Below, piece after piece: positions 8,275 through 59,547 of a stretch of 64,000 nt of DNA. The stretch comes from Escherichia coli. GTDB taxonomy: Bacteria; Pseudomonadota; Gammaproteobacteria; Enterobacterales; Enterobacteriaceae. Position 1 is the first letter of the stretch. Each line of letters starts with the position of its first letter. The notes under the pieces were generated by a model, which searched no databases, was not told the DNA's origin, and worked only from the letters and a program-made list of their open reading frames with translations. The position numbers and the translations under genes were made by a program. The DNA lies in the NCBI RefSeq assembly GCF_041248615.1, contig NZ_CP158425.1; one strand, 5' to 3'.

Positions 8275-8286
8275 GCTAATAACCCG
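8275..8286 (-). promoter_or_regulatory. Conserved promoter-like motif (minus strand reads ..GGGTTATTAGC)
   Basis: About 45 nt upstream of the ATG at 8231. Confidence 0.4.
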
Positions 8287-8351
8287 TAGCAATATAATTT
8301 GCATTTTTTCTATTTCTGAAGACGCTTTTTAAATTAATATTTACTGAGTTA

Positions 8352-8630
8352 TCACAACTTATTATTCTTCCCGTCTGCTGTTTTATTAATCCCCCAGTTA
8401 GTAATCACGCCAAGTCGGCGCAATTTTTCACGTTGTTCATAAATAAAAAAATCGCCAAGGCAGTCTTTTAAAACTTCACTATCCTGATATTTTATTTTTT
8501 GAAGCATCCTCGCAACTATGGCGCGTTTCAGGAATATGGCTGCATCAGACTCAAGCATTTGTGAGGACTGTCTGACGGTCTCCTGCATGTCGACGATACT
8601 GCTGAGCTTTCGTCTGACCACGCTTAGCAT
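8352..8630 (-). CDS. Hypothetical protein
   Basis: 92-aa ORF with no clear RBS; start uncertain. Confidence 0.35.
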   Translation of the reverse strand: MLSVVRRKLSSIVDMQETVRQSSQMLESDAAIFLKRAIVARMLQKIKYQDSEVLKDCLGDFFIYEQREKLRRLGVITNWGINKTADGKNNKL

Positions 8631-8814
8631 AGTGTCCGGGAACCGCTTAGCGGCTGAATGTAACCCGCAACAACGTTACGCATTGTTTTACTCACTGCAA
8701 TTTTCCATTTAAGTCTGTTTGTTCCACCAGCTGCTAACATCAGCGTTATTCATCCTGAGGTTTCGCCCGCGATTGACAGATCAGAGGCAGCATGGATGAA
8801 ATTGCCAGAGTAGA

Positions 8815-9096
8815 TCACTGCATACGCGAATAGTGGTTTGTATTCAGTTCTGCGTTTGCCTGCTTTTCCAGTGCTGTCATAACCCGGCGGAGCATCGCCA
8901 GAGCCTGAACAGGCGAGCTCCCAAACTGCACTTTCACTTCAGCCGTATCATGATCCTGAATCAGGTCGAGTATATTCACTTCGATCCCTGCCCCGTTTTC
9001 ATCTTTTGCCGTGCACTGAATACTTACCCGGGTCACCGAATCCGTCAGGACTGGCAGTGGGTTAGTTTTGTCTACGTTGATAACAGCCTTCTTCAT
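8815..9096 (-). CDS. Hypothetical protein
   Basis: 93-aa ORF immediately downstream of the ParB-like gene on the same strand. Confidence 0.5.
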   Translation of the reverse strand: MKKAVINVDKTNPLPVLTDSVTRVSIQCTAKDENGAGIEVNILDLIQDHDTAEVKVQFGSSPVQALAMLRRVMTALEKQANAELNTNHYSRMQ

Positions 9097-9161
9097 TGCC
9101 CTGTTTCCCCTTGTCCTGAAAAAGTTACCGACCCGTCCGGATGGAGGGGTCGGTCAGAAAA

Positions 9162-10346
9162 TCATGACTGTCCCTTGTTCATCTTATCAGCATGCTTACG
9201 CAGGTACTCTTTCAGGTCAGCATGAGCGTTGATGATATCGTTCATTTCATCATTGGTCAGAACAAGCGTGTAAGTATCAGTACTGACAGATTCACCTTCT
9301 TTAAGCTTGGCTTCTTCAGCAATACGTTCAAAAATCGGGATCGCGGTGTCTGCAATGACGGTCACAGTCTTTTTGTTCAGAACGCTGGACATGGAAGGTG
9401 CTTTACCTGCCGGGTTCTGTTTAGGAGCGCTGTCCTTTGGAGCTGGAGCCGGTTCCTGTACCGGTGGCGTATCCAGCGTCTCCGTATTGCTTTCATCGTT
9501 CAGTTGATCCGGTACCGGGGTGTTATCGGTAGTATCATCTGCCGGTTGCTCAGCACCGATGTTTTCCGGAGTCTGCGGATCTGCCATGCGCTCTTCTACC
9601 TTGGCAGCTTTGACGAATTTCAGCGTGTTTTTCGTCGCCTTGCCATAGATGGAGATCGCTTTGTTGATGTTATCTACCGCATCCTCACCGCTGTACATAT
9701 ACTCGTCCAGTGCAACGTACATGCTCACCTGATCGCTCACAAGCATGGTCTGTAGTTCAGAAGGCAGGTCCAGTACGCGAACCATCTGGCGAAGATGCTG
9801 CTCTGATTTACCACGTTTTTTTGCCAGTTCCGCAAAGGTCTTAGGCTCTTCTTTATCTTCAACCAGACGCTTAATTGAAAGCGCTTCAGCTACGACAGAC
9901 AGCGCCAGGTTGGAGTTGCCGGTCAGGGTGAAGAGTTCTGCTTTTGAAGCGCTACCGCGAAACTCTTCGCAGCGAATACGAGTAATGCGTTCACGCCCTT
10001 CTGCTTCCAGCTGGCGGTTTGCAATAGCGATGGAACGGATACGGCAAGCCCCCTGACGCAGTACAGGTACGCCATTAACCATCTGAACAACGATAGGCGT
10101 CACGCTGAACGGGTCTTCCATGTAGGCATCGGCCAGGCTGTTCAGGTGTTCCACAACGTGAGGCATTGAATAGTAGAGCTCGCCCATACCGGCCGTGCGG
10201 GTGTTAAAGCCTTCCTGCTCTACAACAACCGAAGGGTCAATGATAAGGCCGTTGCCTTTACGGGCACCGTTACCAGTGCGTTCCAGGTAACCACGAAGGC
10301 TGATTTCGTTGCTGTTGTTTTTTACTTCAGTTTCGATTGCGGACAT
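9162..10346 (-). CDS. ParB N-terminal domain (ParB/KorB-like) protein, paralog 1
   Basis: EGFNTR and VLRQGACR motifs are spaced as in the ParB/sulfiredoxin-fold N-domain. The C-terminal linker is acidic and Pro-rich. Palindromic operator copies lie at 10435-10449 and 10561-10575 upstream. Confidence 0.6.
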   Translation of the reverse strand: MSAIETEVKNNSNEISLRGYLERTGNGARKGNGLIIDPSVVVEQEGFNTRTAGMGELYYSMPHVVEHLNSLADAYMEDPFSVTPIVVQMVNGVPVLRQGACRIRSIAIANRQLEAEGRERITRIRCEEFRGSASKAELFTLTGNSNLALSVVAEALSIKRLVEDKEEPKTFAELAKKRGKSEQHLRQMVRVLDLPSELQTMLVSDQVSMYVALDEYMYSGEDAVDNINKAISIYGKATKNTLKFVKAAKVEERMADPQTPENIGAEQPADDTTDNTPVPDQLNDESNTETLDTPPVQEPAPAPKDSAPKQNPAGKAPSMSSVLNKKTVTVIADTAIPIFERIAEEAKLKEGESVSTDTYTLVLTNDEMNDIINAHADLKEYLRKHADKMNKGQS

Positions 10347-10414
10347 TTTTGTTCTCTTTTTTGGTTGGTTGTTTAACTGCGCTACAACACAACAATACCA
10401 GGTTCGACATTTTT

Positions 10415-10426
10415 CCTAATAGGTTG
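10415..10426 (-). promoter_or_regulatory. Conserved promoter-like motif, variant (CAACCTATTAGG)
   Basis: About 70 nt upstream of the ParB-like paralog 1 start. Confidence 0.4.
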
Positions 10427-10434
10427 CGGAGAAG

Positions 10435-10449
10435 AAAAAGTAACTTTTT
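10435..10449. promoter_or_regulatory. Palindromic operator-like site, copy 2 (overlaps the -35 position of the ParB-like paralog 1 promoter)
   Basis: AAAAAGTAACTTTTT, adjacent to the promoter motif at 10415-10426. Confidence 0.5.
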
Positions 10450-10560
10450 TTAAAAATTTTCCTGAGGCAATACTACTCGATCCGTCCGTTTTAAATCTTC
10501 ACAACAGTGGGCCGTTTTTACGTTTAAGCAAAATAACTGGTTCAGAAGGTGACTCAGAGA

Positions 10561-10938: not shown

Positions 10939-11447
10939 CTTGTTCTCCTCAATCATTATTAAAACCAGCGGATTTAGTTTCTGGCGCTCCATCTGCTGAC
11001 CGGCTTTCCCAGAGAGCAGCGATGTGTCGGGTTCTTTTTCTCATTTTATCGTTTTCATCGGGCCCATCCGGGCGTATAAGAGACCGATTTGGCATGTTTA
11101 GGAAACGTACTGGCGTAATTAAAAGCTGAGGTTGGATTTGGAATAAAAGGATGCTTTTCCCGTTTGTCGGGTCTTTCGCCACCGCTGCACGATGATTCTG
11201 TCAGGCATTCTGCGCCCTCCCAGGCTGCACATCTGGAAACAAGCGTTGGGATGTTCCCTTCCCCTGCTCACCGTAGAAAGATCGGCAAGTCCCGACGGTC
11301 GTTCCGTACGAGCCGGGTCCAAATAATGAATAAATAAAACGCCGCTTCAATTGTATTGACAATAGAAGTCAGGAGGATCATAGTGTCATTCATGGTGCGG
11401 CTTTCGCACCACCGCCCCGGCGGTACCGGGCAGAACTGGAGTACCTC

Positions 11448-16158: not shown

Positions 16159-16470
16159 TTATCGCATATAACGCTGTTGCATAAACAGATACAGATAACC
16201 CTCAGGAGAAAACATGCAAAGGTTATCAGTGATAACCGCATCCAGATACCGAGTGTCAGTCTGTAAACGTTTTATCACCAGAAAATGTGCTGCCGCAGCC
16301 TTAATGCCAGAACTACCGTTTACAACATTATGTATACCCGCTTCGAATAACGAACGAGCATGAATTACCTTTTCCCGGGCCGCTTCGATCTCCGCATTAA
16401 TAACGCATTGCCGCGCCTGGATGACTGCCTCTCCGGTTAAATCGCGGAAATTCATTAGAGATGTGATCAT
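16159..16470 (-). CDS. Hypothetical protein
   Basis: TGGAGAG RBS. The conserved promoter motif lies at 16522-16534. Confidence 0.5.
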   Translation of the reverse strand: MITSLMNFRDLTGEAVIQARQCVINAEIEAAREKVIHARSLFEAGIHNVVNGSSGIKAAAAHFLVIKRLQTDTRYLDAVITDNLCMFSPEGYLYLFMQQRYMR

Positions 16471-16521
16471 GATTAACTCTCCAGATTATGTGGAATCATT
16501 ATAACAACTGGCATCCCGCCA

Positions 16522-16534
16522 CAAATAACCTGAG
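16522..16534 (-). promoter_or_regulatory. Conserved promoter-like motif (CTCAGGTTATTTG)
   Basis: About 52 nt upstream of the ATG at 16470. TTCAAA lies 15 nt further upstream. Confidence 0.4.
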
Positions 16535-16692
16535 AAAAATTCTTTGAAATATTCCTATATATAAGGAATTACAGTCGGAAAAGAAACGATGAAATAGCGC
16601 CGACCGCTTAAAATCGATAAATTAAAATGGACGGCACTGGAATGAAAAACTGAAAGTAGTAAGACCGTAATTATCCTTCACGGATGTAAGCT

Positions 16693-17888: not shown

Positions 17889-18178
17889 ACCTTCCCCTCC
17901 TTATATAAAACAATCCGCCAGCAGCTCGACTGGCGGACAATGTTTGACTGGCAACAGCAAGGACATACTATTTAGTGACAAGTTTGATCTTGGTTTCACT
18001 CATTCGAAGTCGAAACTCCTGAAAACCCTGCTCTACCGCTAACTCCAGCCACTCAACGGGAATGGTATAGCTACAATCAGACCCACCCAAAGCGGCATCA
18101 CAAGCGTAATCCCAGTCCTCATCCTGAACCGCCCCGGGAATCCTGGAGACTAAACTTCCTGAGAAAGAGGTAAACAGG

Positions 18179-18505
18179 ATGACTAAAAATACTCGTTTTT
18201 CCCCCGAAGTCCGTCAACGGGCAGTCCGTATGGTTCTGGAAAGTCAGAGCGAATATGACTCACAATGGGCGACAATTTGTTCCATTGCTCCAAAGATTGG
18301 CTGTACGCCGGAGACTCTGCGTGTCTGGGTTCGCCAGCATGAGCGGGATACCGGGGGCGGTGATGGAGGGCTCACCACCGCTGAACGTCAGCGTCTGAAA
18401 GAGCTGGAACGTGAAAATCGTGAACTGCGCCGCAGTAACGATATCCTTCGCCAGGCTTCCGCTTATTTTGCGAAGGCGGAGTTCGACCGCCTCTGGAAAA
18501 AATGA
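18179..18505 (+). CDS. IS3-family transposase OrfA (HTH)
   Basis: The 108-aa [22 protein letters not shown]... matches IS629/IS1203 OrfA as I remember it. An A6 run at 18497-18502 lies at the orfA/orfB junction. Confidence 0.9.
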
Positions 18506-19392
18506 TGCCACTGCTGGATAAGCTGCGTGAGCAGTACGGGGTCGGACCGCTATGCAGCGAACTGCATATTGCCCCGTCAACGTATTACCACTGTCAGCAA
18601 CAGCGACATCATCCGGATAAACGCAGTGCCCGTGCGCAGCGCGATGACTGGCTGAAGAAAGAGATACAGCGCGTATACGATGAAAATCACAAGGTATACG
18701 GTGTGCGTAAAGTCTGGCGTCAGTTGTTACGGGAAGGTATCAGAGTGGCCAGATGCACTGTGGCACGTCTCATGGCGGTTATGGGACTTGCCGGTGTTCT
18801 CCGGGGTAAAAAGGTCCGTACGACCATCAGCCGGAAAGCCGTTGCCGCAGGCGACCGCGTAAACCGTCAGTTCGTGGCAGAACGACCTGACCAGCTGTGG
18901 GTGGCTGATTTTACTTACGTCAGCACATGGCGGGGCTTCGTCTATGTGGCGTTCATCATTGATGTGTTTGCCGGATACATCGTGGGGTGGCGGGTCTCAT
19001 CGTCCATGGAAACGACATTCGTGCTGGATGCACTGGAGCAGGCGTTATGGGCCCGTCGACCGTCCGGCACGGTCCATCACAGTGATAAAGGTTCTCAGTA
19101 TGTATCGCTGGCCTACACACAGCGGCTTAAGGAAGCCGGATTACTGGCATCAACAGGAAGTACAGGCGACTCGTATGACAACGCGATGGCGGAGAGCATC
19201 AATGGTCTTTACAAAGCGGAGGTAATACACCGTAAGAGCTGGAAAAACCGTGCAGAAGTGGAACTGGCCACACTCACGTGGGTGGACTGGTATAACAATC
19301 GACGATTGCTGGAAAGGCTGGGCCATACTCCTCCGGCAGAAGCAGAAAAAGCTTATTATGCTTCCATCGGAAACGATGATCTGGCAGCCTGA
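18502..19392 (+). CDS. IS3-family transposase OrfB (DDE integrase core)
   Basis: 296 aa with the VADFTYV...HSDKGSQY...[18 protein letters not shown] signature. Probably expressed as an OrfAB fusion by -1 frameshifting (inferred from IS3-family biology). Confidence 0.9.
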
Positions 19393-19776: not shown

Positions 19777-20088
19777 TTACTCTCCCTCTTCAGTGGACAA
19801 CATCAGATACTTTGTTGCCAGCAGAAGCTCTCCCACATCCTTGAGGGACAATTCAGCTTTGCCTTCTACGGCAAGCTGCAAGCGCTGTCGAATTGCATGA
19901 ACAGAATCTGAAGATAAAGATGCCATTTTGCGCAAAACGGCATTAGCCTTTTCTACAGCAGGATACAGAATTTCTGAGTTGGTATTATCTTCGTCATTAT
20001 CAAAGATAATTTCAGAATCCATATTGATGTTATCTTCAAGCCAGCTTGAAAGCACTTCAAGTAATGACATCACCTTTTCAATTTGCAT
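19777..20088 (-). CDS. Acidic hypothetical protein
   Basis: A GAGGAGG RBS precedes the ATG at 20088 (MQIEKV...). The track ORF start at 20124 lacks an RBS. Confidence 0.5.
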   Translation of the reverse strand: MQIEKVMSLLEVLSSWLEDNINMDSEIIFDNDEDNTNSEILYPAVEKANAVLRKMASLSSDSVHAIRQRLQLAVEGKAELSLKDVGELLLATKYLMLSTEEGE

Positions 20089-20137
20089 ATCGCCTCCTCT
20101 GTTAATGTGAAACAAATATAACAAAGTGGCTTACCCG

Positions 20138-20151
20138 GCTAATAACCTGAG
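20138..20151 (-). promoter_or_regulatory. Conserved promoter-like motif (CTCAGGTTATTAGC)
   Basis: About 50 nt upstream of the ATG at 20088. Confidence 0.45.
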
Positions 20152-20388
20152 CAGAAAGTTTTCGCACTTTGTTTGAAAACAACTTTTCTGCTCAGGTTAA
20201 TGTTAAAGTCGCTGTGTAAAAGATAAAGGGCACTAAAGATGATTTAAGCATCAAACAGACTAAATCGGATTCCGTCTTTTATATCGCTTTTAAAATAGAA
20301 TGAATGAAATATAAATTTAGCGTTTATGATTGAACGCTGTAGAGGTTGATTTATCCAGTGATATTCAGTTTGGGGCCTTAAAAAGGTT

Positions 20389-21103: not shown

Positions 21104-21331
21104 TTACGAAATAAGTTTCTCACACTCCTGTATAAGAGTCGCCCTGGAACGAGATCGACTGGCTTTGCTTAATGAAGAGCGTAGTTGATGTTCATCAACC
21201 CCATCAGCGATAAACTGACCGATTTTTGTTTCAAGCCGCTGCATTGCCTCGTAAAGCTTGGCATCCGCATTATTTTTAAGAAACCTCAGTATATAATCAG
21301 CAATAATTTGGACGGGAGTGAACTTATACAT
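21104..21331 (-). CDS. Small hypothetical protein
   Basis: AAGGA RBS; 75 aa. Confidence 0.5.
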   Translation of the reverse strand: MYKFTPVQIIADYILRFLKNNADAKLYEAMQRLETKIGQFIADGVDEHQLRSSLSKASRSRSRATLIQECEKLIS

Positions 21332-21558
21332 TATGTATCCTTAAGACGTTGTGTTAAATGATTCAAAAAAATTTATAACCAGACGTAAATTATTATACAT
21401 AAGTAAGCACTTTAGCTAACAAGCTGGAGGAGTGAATTTCGGTTAGCAACTATATTTTAGAAGCTGATTGCTGAATAGACAAAGCCCGGCTTACCGGGCA
21501 TTCATTTAATTAGATGCTAGAAATCTGACCCGTCGTCTGACTTTTATTCCAGGCAGAG

Positions 21559-23923: not shown

Positions 23924-26308
23924 TTATACGACCTGCCTGACCATCCTCATCAGAAGGCGGTTTAACAGTCCTTTCGCTGTCGGGCGATTGCTATCGACAT
24001 AGTAAAAACCTGTTTTGGTCGTACCGTGAGCACTGCTCAGCACCCTCAGTTCCCAGATAACGTCACGGATAACGCCGCCATTTTCTGGCTTAAGGCATTC
24101 AGATAAATGGCGCATGAAACGAGCTCTTACGGCACGGTAATAGCGGAACTCCTCTGGCTGGTTAGTATTTTCTTTCACCCGGAGTCGCTGGTTACACAGA
24201 GTTAGAACTGCATCCATCATTCCCGCCTTCAGCTTCGCCTGGATCGCACCTTGTTGCTGTTCCCTCTCACCTTCGAGTAACGTTAAGATTCTTTCTCCGA
24301 GTGCCGTCTTGTTGTGTACGTGCAACTGTACACAGGCAGCTACGCATGCCCAGAATCTGAACTTTTTTATCTGTCCACGCAATTTCCGGGCTACAACCTG
24401 ACGGTATGCAGTATCGCTGAGTATTTTAAAACGCCGACTGGCAACCAGCTCTGGAAGCGACACTCTTTCGCCTATCCCCAGGCGGGAAAAGGTTTGTCCC
24501 CGTTGTGCGAGACGATGATAGACAGCGCCCTTCCCTTTTGAAATTCGGACCGCGCCATAACGAAGAAGATACTGAGCAGCAGTCGTTGGAGTAAACTCAC
24601 CGTCAGCGATGCTCTGGCGTAACCCGTCGTATTCATGCCAGATAATCCAGGACGCCGTATCTTCTTCAACAGTCAGCTCATCCTCTTCCTCGAATGCCAC
24701 GACGACAGAACTGCTCTCTCCGGTCTTTAGGCTACGTGAAGCCCTGGGGTCAGCCTGCCCGTCAAAATAGGTCATCAGCGGCAACGTATCAGTCAGTCCA
24801 TCATAAGCTGTACCGAACCGGCCTCCGGGCAGTTTCATCCAGAGTGGAGCTGGCATTGGTGTACGGGCCACAGGCAGCATGTCAGGCTCATCCTCAAGAA
24901 GGTCCAGATCGGCCTCTTCCCAGACTCTGCGATAGATCTCAATTGCCCGAAACGGGCGAGGGTTGAAACAGTGCAACGACCAGAGGAAATCAACGTGGAT
25001 CACGTTTGCTTCATGTACAAGCCGAAATTGTGGCTCAGCCATACGACGGTTATAAGCCGTATCGTCCACCTCGCCGGAAAGTAGCTTTCTGCGATGCTTT
25101 GCCGCACGTCTGGCTTCAACATAATCAAGGCTGCAACAGACATGAAAAAGACGTTCAGTCAGGGACGAAGAAAAGATATTGGGTTGAAGACGCACATACC
25201 CGCCTTCGAACACTTTACGACCGATATAATCCCGCAGGCTCCAGTCGTACTGGATCTTAGAAAGAAATCGCTGAAGACGACTTAGGCCTGCCTGATAACC
25301 ATATTTCTCAGGGTCAGTGCGAAGGAGCGTTTCCATTGAATGGTCAACCCCTACGGCTGTGCAAAGCGAGCACCCATATCTAGCCCCACAAGCTGAGGTT
25401 CGCGTGGGTTTCTCCGGCGACCAGATACACTCTCCGGTGGCGTCTTTATAAAGCGTTGCCAGGCTGAAGTTATCCGGCATAAAGCTTGGTAAAGGGAAGC
25501 GGGATTCGGAACCACAGGCCATTAGAAAAGACCAGATGTCCTGAGTGCGCCACTCCTTTACTGGATAGAGTTCACCACCGTGCTCAGTCAGGGTTACTTT
25601 CCTCGCCTGCCCTCCCATTTTGAGGATATTTCCGGCCCTTCGGGCACTTTCATCATCCCTGGAGCCCAGCATCAGGCATACCCTGCTTCGTACGGATGCC
25701 GGGGCGTTTTTTAGATAACGAGCTTTGGCCTTGCGCAGGGGGGCGATTTTGTAGTCGGTTGAGCACTGACGGGTTGAAGAATTAGTCCAGGTCGGAAGTC
25801 CACGTCCAGTCAGAATGCGGCCTACCCAGCTCTGCGTAAGAGACGGTTGGGCGACAAGGACTGTGACCGGTAGCTGGTGTTCAGCAATGAACATTCTAAG
25901 CTGGTTGAGAACCTGTGAAGCCTGATAGTGCATCTCAGGGTTTTCGATCAGCGTATCGGACATCTGAATGAAATGATGTTCGCTGATATTTGTGCCGTTA
26001 CGTACTGCCCTGATCAATGCCATCAGAAATAGGTGAAGAAGAGAATGGGAGTCTTTACCGCCACTGTATCCCACGCACATCGTCCATCCGTCCGTAATAG
26101 CCTGATAAATAGCAGATGTGGCTGACGTGACCAGAGAAGAAAGACTCACAGTCTCCTTTTCATCGGTATAGTTCAGATCGGCATCGGTTGTCAGGGTCTC
26201 CCAAACATCAGCCCATTTATCATGTTTCAAAATGGCAGCATTAGCCGCCTCAGGAAAAATAACTTCTGAGGGTAATTCAAGGAATGAGTCACTTTTTTCA
26301 ATAAACAT
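23924..26308 (-). CDS. DndC / PAPS-reductase-like PP-loop ATPase with a long C-terminal extension (794 aa)
   Basis: PP-loop motif VGYSGGKDSHSLLHL. Downstream cysteine motif ARYGCSLCTAVGVDHSMETLL resembles the DndC/IbrA family (R[FY]GC.xCT...D.SME). The roughly 330-aa C-terminal region is unassigned. Confidence 0.65.
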   Translation of the reverse strand: MFIEKSDSFLELPSEVIFPEAANAAILKHDKWADVWETLTTDADLNYTDEKETVSLSSLVTSATSAIYQAITDGWTMCVGYSGGKDSHSLLHLFLMALIRAVRNGTNISEHHFIQMSDTLIENPEMHYQASQVLNQLRMFIAEHQLPVTVLVAQPSLTQSWVGRILTGRGLPTWTNSSTRQCSTDYKIAPLRKAKARYLKNAPASVRSRVCLMLGSRDDESARRAGNILKMGGQARKVTLTEHGGELYPVKEWRTQDIWSFLMACGSESRFPLPSFMPDNFSLATLYKDATGECIWSPEKPTRTSACGARYGCSLCTAVGVDHSMETLLRTDPEKYGYQAGLSRLQRFLSKIQYDWSLRDYIGRKVFEGGYVRLQPNIFSSSLTERLFHVCCSLDYVEARRAAKHRRKLLSGEVDDTAYNRRMAEPQFRLVHEANVIHVDFLWSLHCFNPRPFRAIEIYRRVWEEADLDLLEDEPDMLPVARTPMPAPLWMKLPGGRFGTAYDGLTDTLPLMTYFDGQADPRASRSLKTGESSSVVVAFEEEDELTVEEDTASWIIWHEYDGLRQSIADGEFTPTTAAQYLLRYGAVRISKGKGAVYHRLAQRGQTFSRLGIGERVSLPELVASRRFKILSDTAYRQVVARKLRGQIKKFRFWACVAACVQLHVHNKTALGERILTLLEGEREQQQGAIQAKLKAGMMDAVLTLCNQRLRVKENTNQPEEFRYYRAVRARFMRHLSECLKPENGGVIRDVIWELRVLSSAHGTTKTGFYYVDSNRPTAKGLLNRLLMRMVRQVV

Positions 26309-27773: not shown

Positions 27774-27840
27774 AGTTGACTCCTTGATTATTTAATTAAT
27801 GTATTTGATGAGAAGATCATAACAAACACACTACTACCAA

Positions 27841-40566: not shown

Positions 40567-40579
40567 GAGGTTATTAGCT
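40567..40579 (+). promoter_or_regulatory. Conserved promoter-like motif (GGAGGTTATTAGC), rightward copy
   Basis: About 50 nt upstream of the ATG at 40629. TTTGAA lies 16 nt upstream of TATTAG. Confidence 0.45.
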
Positions 40580-40628
40580 CGTGCATCTGGATTGTTAATA
40601 TAAAGCCAACACAGAAAAGGAAAACAAA

Positions 40629-42328: not shown

Positions 42329-42592
42329 ATGACGCATACTGCCGTTTCTCAGGCTAATAGTGCTTTGCAGCTACCCACGCTGGAGCATGTCTACGCACTT
42401 CTGAAAGCAAATTGTAAACCTGACCGCTTTGACGGGCGTGACGGACCCGTGTGGGGCCAGGAATACTCGTGGAATCTGGCAAAAGATCGCTTACAGGATC
42501 TGGAGAAATACGGTAAGGCATATGTCTCCCGTCATGAAGACCGTATGGGGGAAGGATTTAGTTTTGGTCCTGACCTGTTAATTATTCGCTAA
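42329..42592 (+). CDS. Small hypothetical protein
   Basis: 87-aa ORF, co-directional. Confidence 0.45.
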   Translation: MTHTAVSQANSALQLPTLEHVYALLKANCKPDRFDGRDGPVWGQEYSWNLAKDRLQDLEKYGKAYVSRHEDRMGEGFSFGPDLLIIR

Positions 42593-46276: not shown

Positions 46277-48112
46277 GACAATGGGAGTGAGTGTCGAACC
46301 CCTTGAGTAAGGATACTTGGTAAATATACAGCCCCGGGGATTCTCTTCCTTCAACCGGGGATGACAACGGGAGTGAGTCCGGCAACTCACACCTGTTGTC
46401 ACTTCTCTGACATATCGTCATACGAGCTTACTCAAGCGCATCCACAAAGATGGGATCGTTTTGAATCTAAACTGGTACTGGTTAGCCAGTCACTTGCATC
46501 TACTCCCCCGTCGATATTTAAGTGACAATTGTAGTGATCTGCAATACTGGTGTCTCAGAAACACTGACGACGGTAGAGACTCAATACCCTAACCCCTGAC
46601 AACAGAAGTGAGCTTAGAGGTGTTACGCTGCTGTCACCTAATGCTTGGGAATTGCCTGACTCACAACCATTGTCATCCGGAGCTACTGATTAACGTTGAA
46701 CCGCTGGACTTTAATGACAGTGGTAGTGATGGATAGGCTCATTTCCATTGTCGTCATTTTATCGGACAAGCCTCTTCGTCCTACAGGTTTAAGCTGACAA
46801 TGGTAGTGATTGGATGATCTCACTACTGTTGTCACTCAGTTCTTTGAGCGGACCCTTCCCTCGGTTGGTCGGCATTAACAACGGTAGTGACTCGATTGGC
46901 TCACTGCCATTGTCATCGTGTAAATGACGTACCTTATCAGCTCAGCTGAAAGCAATGACAACGGTAGTGACTCTAATTGCTCACTGCCATTGTCGTCGTG
47001 TCTATTGAGAGCCTTATCAGTGCACCTGAAAAGCAATGACAACGGTAGTGATTCTAATGGCTCACTACCGTTGTCACCGTGTGTATTGAGAGGATGGTCC
47101 ACCTAACTGGACGTATATGACAATGGTAGTGACTTTAATAGCTCACTACCATTGTCGGTGTGTGAATTGAGAGGATGAGCAGCTCAGCTGTACGTCCATG
47201 ACAATGGTAATGACTTAATGAGCTCACTACCGTTGTCACCCTGTTAATTAAGAGGCTCATCTGCTCTTCTGGAAGGCTATGACAACGGAAGTGACTTGCT
47301 GGGCTCACTGCCATTGTCGCCGTATGAATTGAGAGGATCATCCGCTCTTCTGGATGGCAATGACAACGGTAATGACTTAATAGGCTCACTACCATTGTCA
47401 CCCTGTGAATTGAGAGGATGATCTGCTTAACCAGACGGCCATGACAACGGTAGTGACTTTCTGGGCTCAATACCGTTGTCACCCTGTGAGTTAAGAGGTT
47501 GACCCGCTCTACTGGACGGCCATGACAACGGTAGTCACTTTCTGGGCTCACTACCGTTGTCACCCTGTGAGTTAAGAGGTTGACCCGCTCTACTGGACGG
47601 CCATGACAACGGTAGTCACTTTCTGGGCTCACTACCGTTGTCGCCATATAGAATGAGAGGAGCATCAGCTCAACTGAACGGCAATGACTACAGTAATGAG
47701 CTGGATGAAGCATAACCATTGACATCTGGCCCAACCGGAAGCCGTATTCGCCAATCCAATCGAGATTCACAATGGCCGTGACTCGCCGCATTAAGTTCCG
47801 GTGTCCTCCCAAAGCTGAACGCACACTCGGAGGACAATGACAATGCCAGTAAGGTACACATCATTACCATTGTCACTATAGCTACCAGAGAAGCCGGGAT
47901 TTGAATGTCGATGGTAGTGAGTGGGTCAACTCACTGCCATTGTCACCCCGTTACGATATTTTCCGTTGGATGTACTGGCCAATGAAGTAAAGCGTAGAAA
48001 CCGGGTGTTAACAGGTGACTCAGGAGAAAGCGTTGAATTTCGCAATCTCGATCTACATAGGGTGGTAGAGAACAATGACAACGGTAATGACTTTTGACTC
48101 ATTACCGTTGAC
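46277..48112. repeat. Array of about 20 inverted iteron pairs (RepA-site palindromes) downstream of repA
   Basis: Each unit is GACAAYGGTAGTGA, 8-10 nt, then TCACTRCCRTTGTC. The arm sequence equals the direct iterons at 49496-49593 and 49919-50017. Confidence 0.85.
46796..47685. repeat. Core of the array: 11 tandem units of 80-81 bp
   Basis: Left arms start at 46796, 46877, 46957, 47038, 47119, 47200, 47281, 47362, 47443, 47524 and 47605. The spacers between pairs are also conserved. Confidence 0.9.
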
Positions 48113-48187: not shown

Positions 48188-49276
48188 TTAGCTGGCGTTG
48201 CTGTTCTTTTTCTGGCTTCGAAGACTACGAATATAGCGCAGTTCTTCAGCGGTTAAATCATGGACGGTAAGAACATCATCGCCGTCAATCGGGTCAGCTG
48301 GTGGGCATAACTCACCTTCTAAAACAGAAGACCCTGAGTTCTCTTCTTCATCTTCAACCACTTCTAAAGGAGGCTGAGTATTGTTCAAATTCAGATCGGG
48401 ATCCCGCTTATGAATCTGGAAGTATACTTTTCCGTCTTTCTTAATTTCGGTGTACTTGAGGTATCCTATCGATGCCAACTCTTCAAGAGCCTTTCTCACG
48501 GTAGCATTCTGACTATTTGCTCGTGTTTTGAGGTTCAGACGATTTTTCAGCCGAGTAAGGGATATCGGTATAGGATTTGGCGGTAATGACTCTATGAACG
48601 TATAGAGAGCCTGGGCGCTTTCCTTCTTGGCCAACTCCTTAATTGCCTTCAGCTGCATCAAAACCTTATGATCGTATTGATAGAGCTCGAAAATCTTAGG
48701 ATCAACCTGAAGGACAACCTGATCTGATTCCGGGTCTAACAGGGCAGACTGTACCAGATGCGTTGTATAGACTTTGGACGAGTTATTACTGGTGAACGAC
48801 AAGGTAACGGATGCTAACCTGCGTAAGGAGGCGTCTATACGTTTTCTGGACGCTGTAGATGAGCGATAATTTTCAGGCGTACATAGCTTGAGGAATTCAG
48901 TGAATTTTAAGCTTATCGTGTCATTGTTAATCGGATGATTGGCATAGGTTCGAATGATGCCCATCCACGTCTTAAAATCTACTGACATATTAAGACGCTC
49001 ACCGACAATTGAAATATTGGTGAACCCCTCGCTCTCCATTAAAGAGAGCGTCTGTAACTCTTTCGTTGCGTCAAAGCCAACCGTTTTATATTCCCGATTT
49101 TGACGCCCCACACTCTTTGGTGATGGGACGAACAGCCCGAGCCGCATCAAAGCAATAGACTGCACCGTACGGTTGCTGTTAGGACGCAAAATGATGTCTT
49201 TACCTGATTCTTTCTCTCTAACAGAGAAAGCCCTGGTGACCAGGTCCTGCTGCTCAGTATCTTTCTCTTTAGTCAT
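48188..49276 (-). CDS. repA: Replication initiator RepA, P1/RepFIB type, with an acidic C-terminal extension
   Basis: [28 protein letters not shown] and [31 protein letters not shown] align with the P1 RepA blocks [28 protein letters not shown] and [31 protein letters not shown] (from memory). Iterons flank the gene on both sides. Confidence 0.85.
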   Translation of the reverse strand: [362 protein letters not shown]

Positions 49277-49339: not shown

Positions 49340-49490
49340 ACTGGATGGATCATTGTGATGATCCATATCTGTGCATAAGTTCTACCTAAAAAAACGACTC
49401 CACTCATTAAAACTTGGCAAAAACTCTTTGCATACAATGACCTGCAACTCTTATCAACAACGGATCAGATCAAGTTAAAAAGATCTAATG
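49340..49490. promoter_or_regulatory. GATC-rich repA promoter/origin-proximal region
   Basis: GATC at 49348, 49360, 49463, 49468 and 49482. Palindrome GGATCAT-TGTG-ATGATCC at 49347-49364. AT-rich. Confidence 0.5.
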
Positions 49491-49495
49491 AAAAG

Positions 49496-49593
49496 TCACT
49501 ACTATTGTCGCTCTGATCACTACTGATGTCAAAAAACTCATTACCAACGTTATAATAATCACTACTAATGTCAAAATAATCACTACTGTTGTC
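49496..49593. repeat. Origin iteron set 1: five direct repeats at exact 21-bp spacing
   Basis: TCACTACTATTGTC (49496), TCACTACTGATGTC (49517), TCATTACCAACGTT (49538), TCACTACTAATGTC (49559), TCACTACTGTTGTC (49580). Confidence 0.85.
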
Positions 49594-49796
49594 ACTGATC
49601 ACGTCTCAGGCCTTGTGCCGTCTGGCCTGGAGGCAGCGGGGATCTCTTTTGATCTATCAGGAACACTAAGGTACTAATTATTGGAACTACCTTGTGGAAA
49701 ATGGGGATAAATAAATGCTTAGTTCTTATACAGGTCTCAACTTGCCTCCCTGATAAAAACTGTCGTCAAAGCTAAATCACAGCCACAGGCATTTTC

Positions 49797-49805
49797 GGTG
49801 GATAA
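49797..49805. promoter_or_regulatory. DnaA-box-like sequence
   Basis: GGTGGATAA is the reverse complement of TTATCCACC, an 8/9 match to TTATCCACA. It lies between the two iteron sets. Confidence 0.3.
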
Positions 49806-49918
49806 ATTTTTGAGAAATAGAAGCATACATGCAGACTCGTGTCGCAAGTAATTGAAAGTAATGATTTATTTAAATAATGCGAGTCACCTTACCTCACAGT
49901 GGAAGTTTAAGTCTAACC

Positions 49919-50017
49919 TCACTACCATTGTCACTTAAAATCATTACCAACGTCGAAATAGTCTCTACCATTGTCTTTTAAGTCACTCCCGTTGTCACTT
50001 ATGTCGCTACTGTTGTC
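49919..50017. repeat. Origin iteron set 2: five direct repeats at 21-22-bp spacing
   Basis: TCACTACCATTGTC (49919), TCATTACCAACGTC (49941), TCTCTACCATTGTC (49962), TCACTCCCGTTGTC (49983), TCGCTACTGTTGTC (50004). Confidence 0.85.
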
Positions 50018-50245
50018 AGTGACAATGCTCCAGCCCAGTAACCATGCGGCCTACAGCGTACCGGGATCTTCTTTGTACTCTCTGGCACCTTTGGGATCAT
50101 TTATTGGATCTACATGAGGGATAAAATCTTTTGACGATTTCGTAGTGCAGTTATACCAGCGACTTAGCAAGACAAAAGCTGCAATTTAGTGACGAGTTAC
50201 TAGTCTGCCCAACAAGAGCAATGCAGAGAAGATATGTGGTGAAAT

Positions 50246-54845: not shown

Positions 54846-55967
54846 AGGACTTCCTCTTGTTGAATACGTTCGGCGTACAGGATGCGAACCGAAACGGTCG
54901 TGTTTTCAAACTCGTTCTCAAAAACGTCCATCCATTCCGTCCGGAATTCTTCCCCCAAAAGGTTATCGAGCCCCTGAAGAGATAATGGAAGAACGGCTGC
55001 TAGAGATCCCCCGGCTGCGAGATGAGATGCAGCTGCCTGGAGATGCCGCCTGGCCCGGTTATCGGCAAAAGGTGGGTTCATCACGACATAATCAAACTTC
55101 TTCTGTTGATTAGACTTAGACCATGTGAGGAAGTCAGCTTCTGTCGTATCGTATCCCTTAGCCCGGGAGATAAGGCAATTCAAAGTATCAAGCTCGATGC
55201 CAGTAACGATCACACCGGCAGGGAATGATTTAAGCAAATCCGCATGGCCAATATTAGGCTCCAGGAGGGTATCCCCTTCCCCTGCACCAAGCAGGGAAGA
55301 TACATATTCGCTGATTCGGCAAGATGAAGGGTAAAACTGATGCGATACAATATCAGGCATCTCCCCTATCTGGCCGATGTAACGAATAACCTCACACGGA
55401 TCATAGGAAAATGTCACATCGTATTTTGTTACTGTTGCCCCTAAGAACCGAAGGGTGTCAGCGGCAACACTCGAAGATTTGCGTTCGGCGAGAGACCCTA
55501 AAGATGTCCAGCAACTCCATTTATTGTCCCCGTCATTTTTAAACATCAGTTCAGAAAGCTGCATCCGGGTATCAAAGTCGATGCACTGCTTAAGTACAGG
55601 GAATGCCTCCAAAGATTTCTTGCTATGAGCCATACGGTCGGCAGGTAATGCCAGCGGTACGATAGCTGATAAAATATTGTTAAGCCGCTCGGCGATATCA
55701 GGGTGGACGTCAATATGCATTGATCCATTTTTGTAAACCCTGAAACGAATACTGTTGCCATCGATGCAGATCCATTTTCTGAACCCCTCATGTTCGACCA
55801 ACGCCTCAACCAATGATTTGGTGTTATGGATCGCCTTCACCTGTTCGCCACGGAAGAATGCGCATATAACGCGGAGCTCGCTCAGCGGTGAAATGCCAGA
55901 CTCTTTAAAATCCTGAACCGCCCCGGGAATCCTGGAGACTAAACTTCCTGAGAAAGAGGTAAACAGG

Positions 55968-56294
55968 ATGACTAAAAATACTCGTTTTTCCCCCGAAGTC
56001 CGTCAACGGGCAGTCCGTATGGTTCTGGAAAGTCAGGATGAATATGACTCACAGTGGGCGGCAATTTGTTCCATTGCCCCAAAGATTGGCTGTACGCCGG
56101 AGACTCTGCGTGTCTGGGTTCGCCAGCATGAGCGGGATACCGGGGGCGGTGATGGTGGGCTCACCAGCGCTGAACGTCAGCGTCTGAAAGAGCTGGAACG
56201 TGAAAATCGTGAACTGCGCCGCAGTAACGATATCCTTCGCCAGGCTTCCGCTTATTTTGCGAAGGCGGAGTTCGACCGCCTCTGGAAAAAATGA
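55968..56294 (+). CDS. IS3-family transposase OrfA
   Basis: 108 aa; differs from copy 1 at a few residues ([18 protein letters not shown]). Confidence 0.9.
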
Positions 56295-57181
56295 TGCCAC
56301 TGCTGGATAAGCTGCGTGAGCAGTACGGGGTCGGACCGGTATGCAGCGAACTGCATATTGCCCCGTCAACGTATTACCATTGTCAGCAACAGCGACATCA
56401 TCCGGATAAACGCAGTGCCCGTGCGCAGCACGATGACTGGCTGAAGAGAGAGATACAGCGCGTATACGATGAAAATCATCAGGTGTACGGTGTGCGTAAA
56501 GTCTGGCGTCAGTTGTTACGGGAAGGAATCAGGGTGGCCAGATGTACAGTGGCGCGCCTCATGGCGGTTATGGGACTTGCCGGTGTTCTCCGGGGTAAAA
56601 AGGTCCGTACGACCATCAGCCGGAAAGCCGTTGCCGCAGGCGACCGCGTAAACCGTCAGTTCGTGGCAGAACGACCTGACCAGCTGTGGGTGGCTGATTT
56701 TACTTACGTCAGCACATGGCGGGGCTTCGTCTATGTGGCGTTCATCATTGATGTGTTTGCCGGATACATCGTGGGGTGGCGGGTCTCATCGTCCATGGAA
56801 ACGACATTCGTGCTGGATGCACTGGAGCAGGCGTTATGGGCCCGTCGACCGTCCGGCACGGTCCATCACAGTGATAAAGGTTCTCAGTATGTATCGCTGG
56901 CCTACACACAGCGGCTTAAGGAAGCCGGATTACTGGCATCAACAGGAAGTACAGGCGACTCGTATGACAACGCGATGGCGGAGAGCATCAATGGTCTTTA
57001 CAAAGCGGAGGTAATACACCGTAAGAGCTGGAAAAACCGTGCAGAAGTGGAACTGGCCACACTCACGTGGGTGGACTGGTATAACAATCGACGATTGCTG
57101 GAAAGGCTGGGCCATACTCCTCCGGCAGAAGCAGAAAAAGCTTATTATGCTTCCATCGGAAACGATGATCTGGCAGCCTGA
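56291..57181 (+). CDS. IS3-family transposase OrfB
   Basis: 296 aa, near-identical to copy 1 OrfB. Confidence 0.9.
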
Positions 57182-57900
57182 GTTCACAGATAAAACACTC
57201 TCCAGGAAACCCGGGGCGGTTCAATCCACCCTTAATTTCTGCCAGGGGTATTTAGACGGCTCGCAAACTCCGGTAGTGATCATGCGGGTGGAGAACCCAA
57301 AAGCTTTGTTTGTCTTGTGACTGCGGCTCAGAGACTGGAAGACGTCGTAAACCCTTTCTTTAATAAATTGATTGCGGTCATTAAGCAAAGCAACGACTGT
57401 GCCCACTACAGCGTCAGCTGTGAAATCAGGGATCACCTGAGGCGGCATAATATAACGGTCGGCCGTAAACTGCTTATCCCATTCGTTACGTTTGGCATCC
57501 GACATGATAGGCAAAACATCAGTGAGTGCCATAACGCGTTTCCAGTATTCTGATCTCAGAGCGTTTTCTGCGAACAAGGCATCCGCTTCTGAGATGCTGT
57601 GGTTGTAGCCTGAGAGATAAGAATAAAGTTTCTGGTGATTGTGGGTTTTGAACTGGACAGCCATGAGTTTCAACAAGCAGAGTTCATCATTATAGGACTC
57701 AACAAGATCCGCGATAATGCCGAGCTCTTTGCGCATATCTGGAAGAAATGTTTCAGGAGAGCTAACCACCAGGCTATGAGAGGTTGTTAAAGCCAGTACG
57801 CTGTGACCTGCATTATCGGGTTTAGCTTCAGAATCAAGAGATGACATTTTACCGGTCCTTTAGAAAAAACTTTTACCAGGATAGCAACGTCGCTCAGTAA

Positions 57901-57914
57901 CCTAATAGGTTCAG
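57901..57914 (-). promoter_or_regulatory. Conserved promoter-like motif, variant (CTGAACCTATTAGG)
   Basis: About 54 nt upstream of the ATG at 57847. Confidence 0.4.
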
Positions 57915-57978
57915 TGACACGAAAAAGTTTTTTATGTCTCTGAATAAAACTTAAAGATGTCAACTCATAGAAAGAAGC

Positions 57979-58005
57979 AAAAAAAAAGCCCCGCATAAAC
58001 GGGGC
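57979..58005 (-). terminator. Rho-independent terminator of the ParB-like paralog 2 gene
   Basis: GCCCC (57988-57992) pairs with GGGGC (58001-58005). Nine U follow on the minus strand (A-run 57979-57987). Confidence 0.65.
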
Positions 58006-58094
58006 AAGAACGATACATGGAGGTTTAAAAAAGGCGGGCAAAAAGCCTGAATCCTTAATGACTCTGACAAAACCAGCACTTTGCCAAAAGTAAA

Positions 58095-59258
58095 TTATTC
58101 TGCGTCCGGCTGTGGGTCAGTATCCTGATCGGTCTCTTCCCCTGCCTTCTTAGCATTTTTTTTACGTGGGTATTTTGGCTTCTCACCATTAAGTTTTGCC
58201 TGACGATTCTCCGCACGGCGAAGCTGCTTGTTCTCTGATTCTGTGATCTCTTTTGAAAGATTTCTCAACATCTCCAGAGTACTGCGGTTCAACGTAATGT
58301 TGATTTCTTCGTCAGCACTTGAATCTGTCAGCTCCGGCAATTCAATATCCCCCAGTTTCTGTAATAAGCTGGTGGTGATGAGTTTGACGCCTTCTACGGC
58401 TTTTGTGGCAATAACCGGCGGAATCCGTGCTGGCTTGAAGTCTGAAGGTCTGACTCGTACCTGACCATGTTGGGTTTTTTTCACCGTGATGCCATTCGCA
58501 TCGGCCTGCTCAAGTTCTGCGATCATCTTCTTGATACGTGAAATTGCTTCTGTTTCGCCGAGCTCATCGATCAGTGAAAGCACGTTAACATACGAAATAG
58601 CGTCAGCATGAATCCATTTCTTGATAACAACAGAACAGGTTGTCAGGCGGATAAGAGAACTGATGGTCGTCGGGCTTTTATTTTCACGTTGAGCAATTCG
58701 TTCGAGTGACCAGCCAGCAAGAGAATGTAGGCGACGATAGGACTCGCCAAGCGCAACAGGAGAAAGCGCAAGACCACGGTTACCATCAATGGTCGCGAGC
58801 TCACAGCCAATTTCATCTTCTTTAATCTCAACGCAAAGGATTGTGATGTCATGATCTTCATCACATGCCATCATTGCGGCTTTTAAACGGCAGTGCCCCT
58901 GGCGAACAAAAGGTACCCCATCAATGACACGTACTCGGATAGGGTCTACATAGTCACCTCGAATGTAGGCATTCTTGATGTTGTAGATGTGTTCTTCAAC
59001 CTCAGGGAGCTTATAGTAATCGTCACCCATTCCCATTTCGCGGGAGTTGAAGCCTGGCGTGACCTGAATTACTGAAGGGTGGATAGCCCATGCTTTCTGG
59101 TCACTTACTTCAGTACAAAGTTCAGGGTTTGCATCACGGAACTGTTTAAGCCCAGTGACGTAACGGCCTGTGCCAGTAACTACTGAAAAGGCAACATGGG
59201 CCGTTTTAAAGACCTTGTCATTAGCTTGCTGTGTAGGTTCTGTCAGTAAAACACTCAT
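58095..59258 (-). CDS. ParB N-terminal domain (ParB/KorB-like) protein, paralog 2
   Basis: PGFNSREMGMGDDYY and FVRQGHCRLKAAMMA are collinear with paralog 1 (EGFNTRTAGMGELYY, VLRQGACRIRSIAIA). ACGGAG RBS. Confidence 0.6.
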   Translation of the reverse strand: MSVLLTEPTQQANDKVFKTAHVAFSVVTGTGRYVTGLKQFRDANPELCTEVSDQKAWAIHPSVIQVTPGFNSREMGMGDDYYKLPEVEEHIYNIKNAYIRGDYVDPIRVRVIDGVPFVRQGHCRLKAAMMACDEDHDITILCVEIKEDEIGCELATIDGNRGLALSPVALGESYRRLHSLAGWSLERIAQRENKSPTTISSLIRLTTCSVVIKKWIHADAISYVNVLSLIDELGETEAISRIKKMIAELEQADANGITVKKTQHGQVRVRPSDFKPARIPPVIATKAVEGVKLITTSLLQKLGDIELPELTDSSADEEINITLNRSTLEMLRNLSKEITESENKQLRRAENRQAKLNGEKPKYPRKKNAKKAGEETDQDTDPQPDAE

Positions 59259-59534
59259 AGGGGCTCCGTTACATTTTTCTGCTTACTTTCTGCGTAGCGG
59301 GGATACTACCGAAAAAAAAATTCATAATTTTTCGCAAAAAAGGTACTTTTTGAGCCTATTCTGATTTTTTACAAAAAAAGGTGGCTCCCCATTACTTGTG
59401 ATGGCATAAAAATCGCTTCATAAACAAATACATAAATCCAAAACATAAAGTTCAGGTATAAGTGAGGAAAAATCTTATAAATCCGAAATGCTGAAAGTCA
59501 AAACTGTGCGTCTTAAACAACTTTTTTTTGCTCC

Positions 59535-59547
59535 CTAAGTTATTAGT
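59535..59547 (+). promoter_or_regulatory. Conserved promoter-like motif, variant (CTAAGTTATTAGT), rightward copy
   Basis: About 80 nt upstream of the dam-like ATG. Confidence 0.35.

Follow-up and report, generated by a model that had tools for sequence, protein, structure and literature searches.

What governs the small genes, without known function or control, that make up about a quarter of the IncHI plasmid backbone? Plasmids of the IncHI1 and IncHI2 groups are vehicles of mcr-1 and mcr-9 in Escherichia coli and Enterobacter and of multidrug resistance in typhoid Salmonella. We address the question in a stretch of 64,000 nt from E. coli (contig NZ_CP158425.1; hereafter the window), in which an earlier note, made from the sequence alone, had described a family of promoter-like motifs containing TATTAG at the head of small operons. 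The window is identical (100%) to positions 174074–238073 of the record of the E. coli plasmid p14408_M1 (NZ_LT599829.1; IncHI2A, MOBH relaxase, MPF_F). It begins within the gene for the coupling protein, where the Tra1 relaxase operon ends (order mobI–mobH–traD, plus strand; oriT presumably lies upstream of mobI, at about 167.5–168.1 kb of the record). About 45 kb of mostly small hypothetical genes follow, and those between 4.5 and 40 kb lie nearly all on the minus strand, that is, directed back at Tra1 and oriT; repHI2 is at 48188–49276 and the window runs on past it to about 64 kb. A phage origin of the region was ruled out, phage records matching it at insertion sequence (IS) elements only. 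The analysis presented here indicates that the motif is a 15-bp near-palindrome which very probably occupies the −35 position of a family of promoters, and which may be the operator of a plasmid-encoded repressor.

Anatomy and occurrence of the promoter motif

We aligned 32 sites from three plasmids: 13 from the window, 11 from the IncHI1 plasmid R27 and 8 from 40 kb of the Citrobacter plasmid pPSV. Each position of the TATTAG core is kept in 29–32 of these sites, and the core is followed by a hexamer TAnnnT after a gap of 18 nt (29 sites) or 19 nt (three sites). In this hexamer the A at the second position and the T at the sixth are present in 32 of 32 sites and the T at the first in 28, and TGn stands directly before it in 26; it reads as a σ70 extended −10 element. 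The earlier note had taken TATTAG itself for the −10 hexamer and an A/T-rich string (TTCTAA, TTTGAA or TTCAAA) 15–16 nt further upstream for the −35, with transcription starting about 7 nt downstream. TATTAG does match TATAAT at 4 of 6 positions, and the 5′ untranslated regions of 45–65 nt that would result are unremarkable. However, a T at the sixth position is nearly invariant in σ70 −10 hexamers, and TATTAG ends in G in 32 of 32 sites, which is incompatible with such a role. The far better hexamer, 18 nt downstream, has an identity of 0.86 over 21 orthologous promoter pairs, compared with 0.46 for the region of the supposed −35, whose A/T-rich strings show no positional conservation and belong instead to a phased A/T block. 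We regard the anatomy of the earlier note as scarcely credible.

Setting the downstream hexamer at −12 to −7 places TATTAG at −36 to −31, and the consensus 15-mer (CAGGTTA-T-TAGCCAG) then extends from −41 to −27, with its centre near −34. Since the conserved extended −10 lies 18 nt downstream, the motif occupies the −35 position, and transcription is therefore expected to start some 36 nt past the first T of TATTAG rather than about 7 nt after the element. The consensus is an imperfect dyad, with complementary bases in 5 of its 7 half-site pairs; at 57907 the copy AACCTA-T-TAGGTT forms a perfect 6-1-6 palindrome. The best −35-like alignment is TTAGCC, at a spacing of 16 bp and with 3 of 6 matches to TTGACA; no canonical −35 is present, and a generic σ70 consensus scan reported none of the 8 modules (motif with its −10) in 19.5–36 kb. 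The A/T block lies from −66 to −47 (83% A+T, compared with 54% for the window as a whole); its A tracts and T tracts recur in phase every 10–11 bp or so, and it resembles an UP element moved about one helical turn upstream. Every site is directed at the downstream gene, with TATTAG 50–90 nt 5′ of the start codon. In most modules this codon lies 20–43 nt past the −10 and is preceded by a GGAG-type Shine–Dalgarno sequence, and terminator-like hairpins are found ahead of several modules, which have the appearance of compact, self-contained expression units. That a promoter family with the motif at −35 exists is, in our judgement, very likely.

The enrichment of the motif far above chance was borne out by string, matrix and pattern tests alike. 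In the window, the exact 14-mer CTCAGGTTATTAGC occurs in 2 copies, and in 6 with up to two mismatches (0.43 expected), while the training-independent pattern GGTTATTAG-N18-TANNNT, with up to one mismatch, gives 9 matches compared with 0.37 expected. A position weight matrix (PWM) score combined with a −10 hexamer at 18 or 19 nt retrieves 12 sites compared with 0.08 expected, a test that is circular because the PWM was trained on the same sites; on R27, kept out of the training and thus independent, the same composite finds 10 sites compared with 0.71 expected. All eleven positions listed in the earlier note hold a member of the family, each within 2 nt, but ‘near-identical’ is too strong a term given the two exact copies of the 14-mer: only YTATTAG stays invariant, and at the flanks there are no more than preferences. 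According to the PWM scan, the ‘weaker variants’ placed at about 21372 and 21000 are not members; the true member in that gap is at 21421 (CAGCTTGTTAGCTAA, then TATAAT 18 nt on), and had been overlooked together with the site at 32489 and an accessory copy at 40522. The statement that the motif heads most mini-operons was also overstated, since 13 of about 30 intergenic gaps carry it (counting, from 4.5 to 60 kb, the gaps that precede a gene and exceed 100 bp). What stands is that the conservation reaches beyond the needs of σ70: the motif is oriented and promoter-associated, and an element for a dedicated regulator is its best reading.

The PWM scan covered the whole 238-kb plasmid. All strong sites with the full architecture fall between 8281 and 59541 of the window, with a single exception in the other 174 kb, at 111377 of the record; there is none in the Tra2, Tra1, tellurite and resistance regions. 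The outlying full modules stand upstream of hypothetical genes, of 175 aa for 111377 (−) in NZ_LT599829.1 and of 1111 aa for 125289 (+) in R27.

Conservation, expression and mode of control

In the complete sequence of R27 the module is found at 10 sites within the syntenic 46.5–95.6 kb, in addition to 125289, and in pPSV at 8 sites in the 40 kb examined. Over the same 21 orthologous promoter pairs the identity of the motif is 0.77, its core GGTTATTAGCC reaching 0.8–1.0, whereas that of the spacer is 0.54 and that of the upstream flanks 0.32–0.46. Because spacer and flanks have diverged, the target of selection is the motif, the −10 and the distance between them rather than the DNA as a repeat. 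We likewise rejected a repeated mobile element, as a direct-repeat search gives at most 33 nt shared (family D12). The motif is not a property of the genes either, since distant homologues of two first genes lack it: in a Klebsiella pneumoniae IncHI1B (pNDM-MAR-type) plasmid, a homologue of the 156-aa first gene (30% identity) has no copy upstream, and none is present at the homologues (40–70% identical) of the 254-aa first gene in Cellvibrionaceae and Pseudomonadales contigs. It is thus specific to the IncHI1/IncHI2 plasmid lineage. Finally, a site of TrhR/TrhY or HtdA was ruled out: in the IncHI2 plasmid and in R27 alike, no copy lies in the promoter regions of H, F, Z, AC, AN, mobI, trhR or htdA, and the intergenic regions with the TrhR/TrhY-dependent tra promoters (H, F, Z and AC) have a best PWM score below 10 and no −10 at 18 nt.

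Are these promoters active in established cells? For all open reading frames (ORFs) of R27, microarray signals of the wild type and of an htdA mutant, at 25 and 37°C, have been published (Gibert et al., 2020; PMC7366339, Table S4), and the authors treat signals below 100 as not expressed (PMC7366339). We mapped their R-numbers onto RefSeq coordinates using repHIA, the ParB-like ‘partition protein’ R0042, IS30, repHI1B, the two IS10 copies, corA, hok, the H operon and trhR/trhY as anchors. Most of the first genes behind motif promoters are under or near the cut-off in established cells, despite a near-consensus extended −10 (values are given for wild type at 25°C / wild type at 37°C / htdA mutant at 25°C): R0062 (22 / 28 / 30), R0063 (13 / 14 / 16), R0064 (11 / 11 / 19), R0107 (13 / 19 / 29), R0069 (47 / 118 / 61) and R0067 (98 / 218 / 603). 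Three others, R0043 (217 / 394 / 326), R0110 (160 / 283 / 1033) and R0088 (339 / 212 / 1286), exceed the cut-off yet are low in the wild type. The sole well-expressed gene is that of the ParB-HTH protein R0104 (2196 / 2155 / 5624), the site of which has a degenerate right half (TTAGGAAA), and according to our ORF mapping the best-matching sites are those of the most silent genes. This pattern fits negative control of the motif promoters.

One cluster of R27 deserves a separate mention. At 62248–65637 the adjacent genes R0062–R0065 lie behind three motif sites, divergently arranged, two of which (63081 and 64751) are consensus copies, and they give background signal in all array conditions, including the conjugation-derepressed htdA mutant. 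Their downstream neighbours R0057–R0061 are expressed, pointing to internal promoters or to silencing that is tight and local.

We favour, at close to an even chance, a reading in which the modules are extended −10 σ70 promoters with an operator for a dimeric plasmid repressor over the −35 position. RNA polymerase would need no canonical −35 at such promoters, since the extended −10 and the A/T block would make it dispensable, and the near-palindrome at −35 would be the putative binding site of a dimeric plasmid-encoded regulator. Bound at a site centred on −34, a repressor would occlude σ region 4; about 13 operons would stay off wherever the plasmid is established, and entry into a cell devoid of the repressor protein would give rise to a burst of expression (zygotic induction). 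A repressor is preferred because of the dyad symmetry, the centre at −34, the steady-state silence of the genes and the accessory copies without a −10 of their own, which lie 50 bp (window, 40522) and 113 bp (pPSV, 18433) upstream of true promoters. The copy in the window (GCATATTAGCCCCTG, 40517–40531 (+), upstream of the 40572 site) has no −10 at 18 nt (a TATAAT is found at 15 nt) and is possibly an auxiliary operator.

Several observations weigh against a repressor. Two half-site positions are asymmetric in every copy. The silence on the arrays could also be explained by H-NS/Hha silencing or by an absent activator, and the mapping of R-numbers to coordinates, which is our own inference, may here and there be wrong by one ORF. 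Among 40 window proteins, domain scans (ten first-gene products in Pfam, PHROGs and NCBIfam, the other 30 in Pfam only) revealed no regulator domain other than ParB-HTH. Lastly, the 18-nt spacing is invariant and the orientation always the same, as would be required by an activator or a polymerase-recognition element, although both features can be reconciled with a repressor if the right half-site doubles as a weak −35 (TTAGCC, 16-bp spacer). In the main rival reading, the 15-mer would bind an activator encoded by the plasmid, which would take over −35 recognition as class II activators do, or MotA at the middle promoters of phage T4; the promoters would then remain silent until this protein is produced or switched on, perhaps in the course of conjugation or afterwards. 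We consider this unlikely, while keeping it as a serious possibility. The strictly fixed distance and the one orientation in 32 of 32 sites speak for it, as do the lack of a usable −35, the silence of the genes in steady-state R27 cultures and the position of the A/T block about one helical turn beyond a canonical UP element, as if a protein held −44 to −27 with the C-terminal domain of the polymerase α subunit (α-CTD) beyond. However, an extended −10 normally frees a promoter from −35 contacts, and with one in 26 of the 32 promoters activation should not be needed; a site centred on −34 covers the full −35 hexamer, unlike typical class II sites at −41.5. Moreover, R0062–R0064 and R0107 stay off in the derepressed htdA mutant with its high TrhR/TrhY activity, where R0067, R0088 and R0110 rise only 4–6-fold, the motif is absent from the tra promoters, and the scanned window proteins include no candidate activator.

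Two further explanations were considered. Without any dedicated factor, a single ancestral promoter could have been copied before many genes, as the earlier note had suggested under the name of repeated promoter capture, the shared sequence being simply inherited and acting as a weak −35. The identical architecture of all copies and the 3 of 6 matches of TTAGCC to TTGACA at 16 bp are in line with this. The divergence of spacers and flanks among IncHI1, IncHI2 and pPSV around a conserved core and −10 nevertheless argues for selection on the motif, the conserved GGTTA lies outside any −35 hexamer, and neither the dyad symmetry nor the accessory copies lacking a −10 would be explained, so that capture as the sole cause is improbable. 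The modules could instead be single-strand promoters of the Frpo/ssi type, which fold in the transferred strand and fire before synthesis of the complementary strand, as in the leading regions of IncF and IncI plasmids. The genes of the region are indeed directed at oriT, and the hok, methyltransferase and ParB-like genes recall the leading regions of F and ColIb-P9. Yet the folding energies led us to reject this idea, which we hold to be extremely improbable: six promoter regions (eight 150-nt folds, two of the regions being folded on both strands) give z scores of −1.7 to +1.7, with the exception of the 20144 promoter at −3.8, and no 300-nt window falls below −59 kcal/mol, the strongest being the IS3 copies, the iterons and the hok region. 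By comparison, the threshold for finding such promoters in pESBL was −75 kcal/mol (PMC12672017).

Modules of the window, candidate regulators and a second palindrome

The modules are given here from the Tra1 end onwards, with the span and strand followed in parentheses by the 15-mer, the −10, the predicted transcription start and the orthologous sites. The module at 8252–8311 (−) (8286–8272, CGGGTTATTAGCCGC; TATAAT, 8257–8252; ∼8245; R27 94689) would drive 7935–8231 and probably also 7453–7890 and 6849–7385. That at 10392–10451 (−) (10426–10412, CAACCTATTAGGAAA; TGG TATTGT, −10 at 10397–10392; ∼10385; R27 92257), adjoined by the palindrome AAAAAGTAACTTTTT at 10435–10449, would drive the ParB-HTH gene 9162–10346, then 8815–9096 and 8352–8630. 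The module at 16498–16557 (−) (16532–16518, CAGGTTATTTGTGGC; TGT TATAAT, −10 at 16503–16498; ∼16491) is predicted to serve 16159–16470, and that at 20115–20174 (−) (20149–20135, CAGGTTATTAGCCGG; TGT TATATT, −10 at 20120–20115; ∼20108; R27 84157 and pPSV 37744) the DUF957 gene 19777–20088 and a DUF3085 gene cut by an IS3 element. Directly upstream of this 20144 promoter, at 20150–20200 (−), there is a long hairpin in which the left motif half (CTTTCTGCTCAGGTTA) pairs with an inverted copy (TAACCTGAGCAGAAAG), at a DNA fold energy of −23 kcal/mol (z = −3.8); no other promoter that was folded has such a structure. The member at 21392–21451 (−) (21426–21412, CAGCTTGTTAGCTAA; TATAAT, 21397–21392; ∼21385) would drive 21104–21331.

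A 19-nt gap characterizes the module at 27816–27876 (−) (27851–27837, CAGGTTATTAGTTGG; TGT TATGAT, −10 at 27821–27816; ∼27809; R27 68130 and pPSV 29227), expected to transcribe 26982–27773, 26481–26930 and possibly the PAPS-reductase-family gene 23924–26308. It is followed by 28688–28747 (−) (28722–28708, TGACCTATTAGCCAG; TATCAT, 28693–28688; ∼28681; R27 67258 and pPSV 28353), for 28323–28649 and 28000–28257. Two modules lie close together at 32460–32519 (−) (32494–32480, CAAGTTATTAGGTAA; TGG TATCAT, −10 at 32465–32460; ∼32453; pPSV 22847), which would drive 31997–32425 and the genes downstream, and at 32922–32981 (−) (32956–32942, GAGGTTATTAGCTGG; TATAAT, 32927–32922; ∼32915; pPSV 22355), which would drive 32520–32897. 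The consensus copy at 35342–35401 (−) (35376–35362, CAGGTTATTAGCCAG; TGT CATGAT, −10 at 35347–35342; ∼35335; R27 64751 and pPSV 19942) heads the 156-aa zinc-finger (YuiA-like) gene 34841–35311, a RelE/ParE toxin gene (34495–34791) and a flavin reductase gene (33305–34450). On the plus strand, the module at 40542–40601 (+) (40567–40581, GAGGTTATTAGCTCG; TGT TAATAT, −10 at 40596–40601; ∼40608; R27 63081 and pPSV 18320) would drive 40629–41393, the methyltransferase gene 41474–42235, 42329–42592 and 42637–43224. Beyond repHI2, the perfect palindrome belongs to 57878–57937 (−) (57912–57898, GAACCTATTAGGTTA; TGC TATCCT, −10 at 57883–57878; ∼57871; R27 46547), predicted to drive the IS3-cut DUF4942 gene 57221–57847, and the last module, 59511–59570 (+) (59536–59550, TAAGTTATTAGTTAA; TACGAT, 59565–59570; ∼59577), a Dam-family methyltransferase gene (59628–60440); no counterpart of the latter module is conserved upstream of the dam gene of R27. 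The two IS3-family copies (18121–19392 and 55910–57181) are 97% identical, and each sits just downstream of a motif-headed operon, truncating the DUF3085 and the DUF4942 gene, respectively.

Which protein could bind the motif? Three ParB-HTH (PF17762) paralogues of 351–394 aa, distinct from the partition ParB of the plasmid, are encoded in the window at 9162–10346 (−), 58095–59258 (−) and 62469–63524 (−), the first of them itself behind a motif promoter. They are about 31–32% identical to one another (two of those in the window were compared) and to a K. pneumoniae counterpart. The K. pneumoniae plasmid, although without the motif, thus encodes a protein like them, so that the paralogues do not discriminate and are no more than candidates. 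In R27, the orthologue of the second paralogue (R0042) is among the highest-expressed non-tra genes (PMC7366339). Among host factor sites and the like (SlyA, ArcA, DeoR, the KorB half-site), we know of none that fits the whole motif.

The ParB-HTH paralogues may alternatively bind a separate motif, the 13-bp palindrome AAAAGTWACTTTT (core AAGTWACTT), which is probably the ‘palindromic operator’ of the earlier note. It has 15 copies in the window compared with 0.47 expected (487, 5389, 10438, 10564, 17557, 21077, 23808, 28857, 33069, 38273, 43990, 46214, 52998, 53063 and 61204), of which 12 are intergenic, and 45 copies each in the 238-kb IncHI2 plasmid and the 180-kb R27. It often lies 134–165 bp 5′ of start codons in operons without the TATTAG motif, two copies flank the oriT/H–R promoter region in the IncHI2 plasmid and R27, and it is also found upstream of genes in the K. 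pneumoniae IncHI1B plasmid that lacks the TATTAG motif. In density and distribution it resembles the operator sites of KorB, with the ParB-HTH paralogues as candidate binders; no description of it was found in the searchable literature.

Other repeated sequences were noted. A second shared promoter or leader, consisting of GTATTGACAAT and, about 60 nt later, a GC-rich hairpin-like sequence CCGCCCCGGCGGTACCGGGCA, is present at 11300–11447 (+) and 40300–40450 (−), directly before the start codons at 11448 (+) and 40299 (−), with related copies in repeat family D10. Tandem repeats of 81 bp (about 10 units) and iteron-like repeats of 21 bp flank repHI2 at 46362–47963 and 49471–50023, as expected for replicon iterons.

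Possible role and comparison with known systems

The region encodes Dam-family and several other DNA methyltransferases, DUF4942, PAPS-reductase-family, ParB-like, DUF957 and DUF3085 proteins, a RelE/ParE module and hok; the motif operons themselves contribute orphan DNA methyltransferases, a ParB-like protein, a toxin–antitoxin-like pair and numerous small proteins without known function. The proposal of the earlier note that the expression of small operons is co-ordinated is plausible, and the arrangement points to one plasmid regulator that would switch about 50 kb of mostly unknown genes together. We suggest, very tentatively and as a rather doubtful possibility, that the motif marks out an establishment regulon in IncHI (MOBH11) plasmids, with about 50 kb of anti-defence and host-adaptation genes, all directed at oriT, that one plasmid repressor would keep silent and that would fire from ordinary duplex promoters on entry into a new cell. 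This role, which the earlier note had raised as a possible early or establishment programme after transfer, is proposed because of the gene content, the orientation of the genes towards oriT and their silence in established cells.

The matter bears on a recent survey, of 2026, which noted that neither the anti-defence nor the codon-usage signatures typical of leading regions are present in MOB-H plasmids, and called the efficient establishment of R27 unexplained (PMC13478746). The survey assumed that the relaxase enters last, and dropped IncHI2, for which no oriT is known (PMC13478746); under this assumption of current pipelines, the motif region would enter late. If the establishment role is true, the regulon would be a functional counterpart of the IncF/IncI leading region without single-strand promoters and on the relaxase side of oriT, placed where current pipelines do not look, and this would explain the missing MOB-H leading-region signal (PMC13478746). 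The motif regulon is an obvious place to look for the establishment of R27. The regulatory work on IncHI plasmids that we found deals with the tra operons (TrhR/TrhY, HtdA, H-NS/Hha), and searches for the motif string, for IncHI promoter motifs and for IncHI transcription start data found nothing relevant in the searchable literature, which omits most subscription journals, so that an earlier description is possible. A 15-bp element before 13 operons provides exact predictions of transcription starts, a bait for the regulator and a gene set in which to look for establishment and anti-defence roles.

How does this family compare with known systems? In the IncP-1 kil-kor system of RK2/RP4 (KorA, KorB, KorC), a short operator, dyad-symmetric as the IncHI motif nearly is, likewise stands at a fixed place in the promoters of many unrelated operons, control is co-ordinated plasmid-wide and ParB-family proteins are encoded alongside; in our case the putative operator recurs at promoters 13 times in the window, 11 times in R27 and 8 times in the 40-kb stretch of pPSV. 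The sequences, however, are unrelated (CAGGTTATTAGCCAG here, compared with GTTTAGCTAAAC for KorA and TTTAGCSGCTAAA for KorB), the plasmid is a MOBH, MPF_F IncHI plasmid with a regulator that is only putative, and the IncHI site is always over the −35 and always in the same orientation. Similar promoters also head groups of genes in the ArdK/StbA/KorA-type network of the IncW plasmid R388 and in the CUP system of the IncN plasmid pKM101. In ArdK and CUP systems, a repressor encoded by the plasmid keeps genes for establishment and anti-restriction off, and their expression overshoots once the plasmid has been transferred. CUP sequences, though, are long conserved upstream repeats of hundreds of bp, whereas conservation in IncHI is limited to about 16 nt plus 9 nt, and neither the regulator nor the sequence of the ArdK and CUP systems is related to the IncHI motif. 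The Frpo/ssi elements of IncF and IncI plasmids share with the modules their place at the head of small anti-defence or establishment operons directed at oriT, but they are hairpins of about 300 nt active only when single-stranded; none was found in the window, whose modules appear to be ordinary duplex promoters.

The middle promoters of phage T4 offer another kind of likeness, combining a σ70 −10, often extended, with a non-σ box that stands in for the −35, always equally far from the −10. With the sequence (a/t)(a/t)(a/t)TGCTT(t/c)A, the box of MotA is nevertheless centred on −30 and not dyad-symmetric, in contrast to the IncHI motif centred on −34; no homologue of MotA or AsiA was seen in the window, in which no search was aimed at them, and the element is a plasmid and not a phage. 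By sequence, the IncHI family belongs to none of the systems compared here; the kind of regulon that it would represent, with one operator at many promoters, is already known. In its regulatory logic it comes closest to the global regulons of plasmids, and in its geometry to promoters such as those of T4 MotA, where the box of a factor takes the place of the −35.

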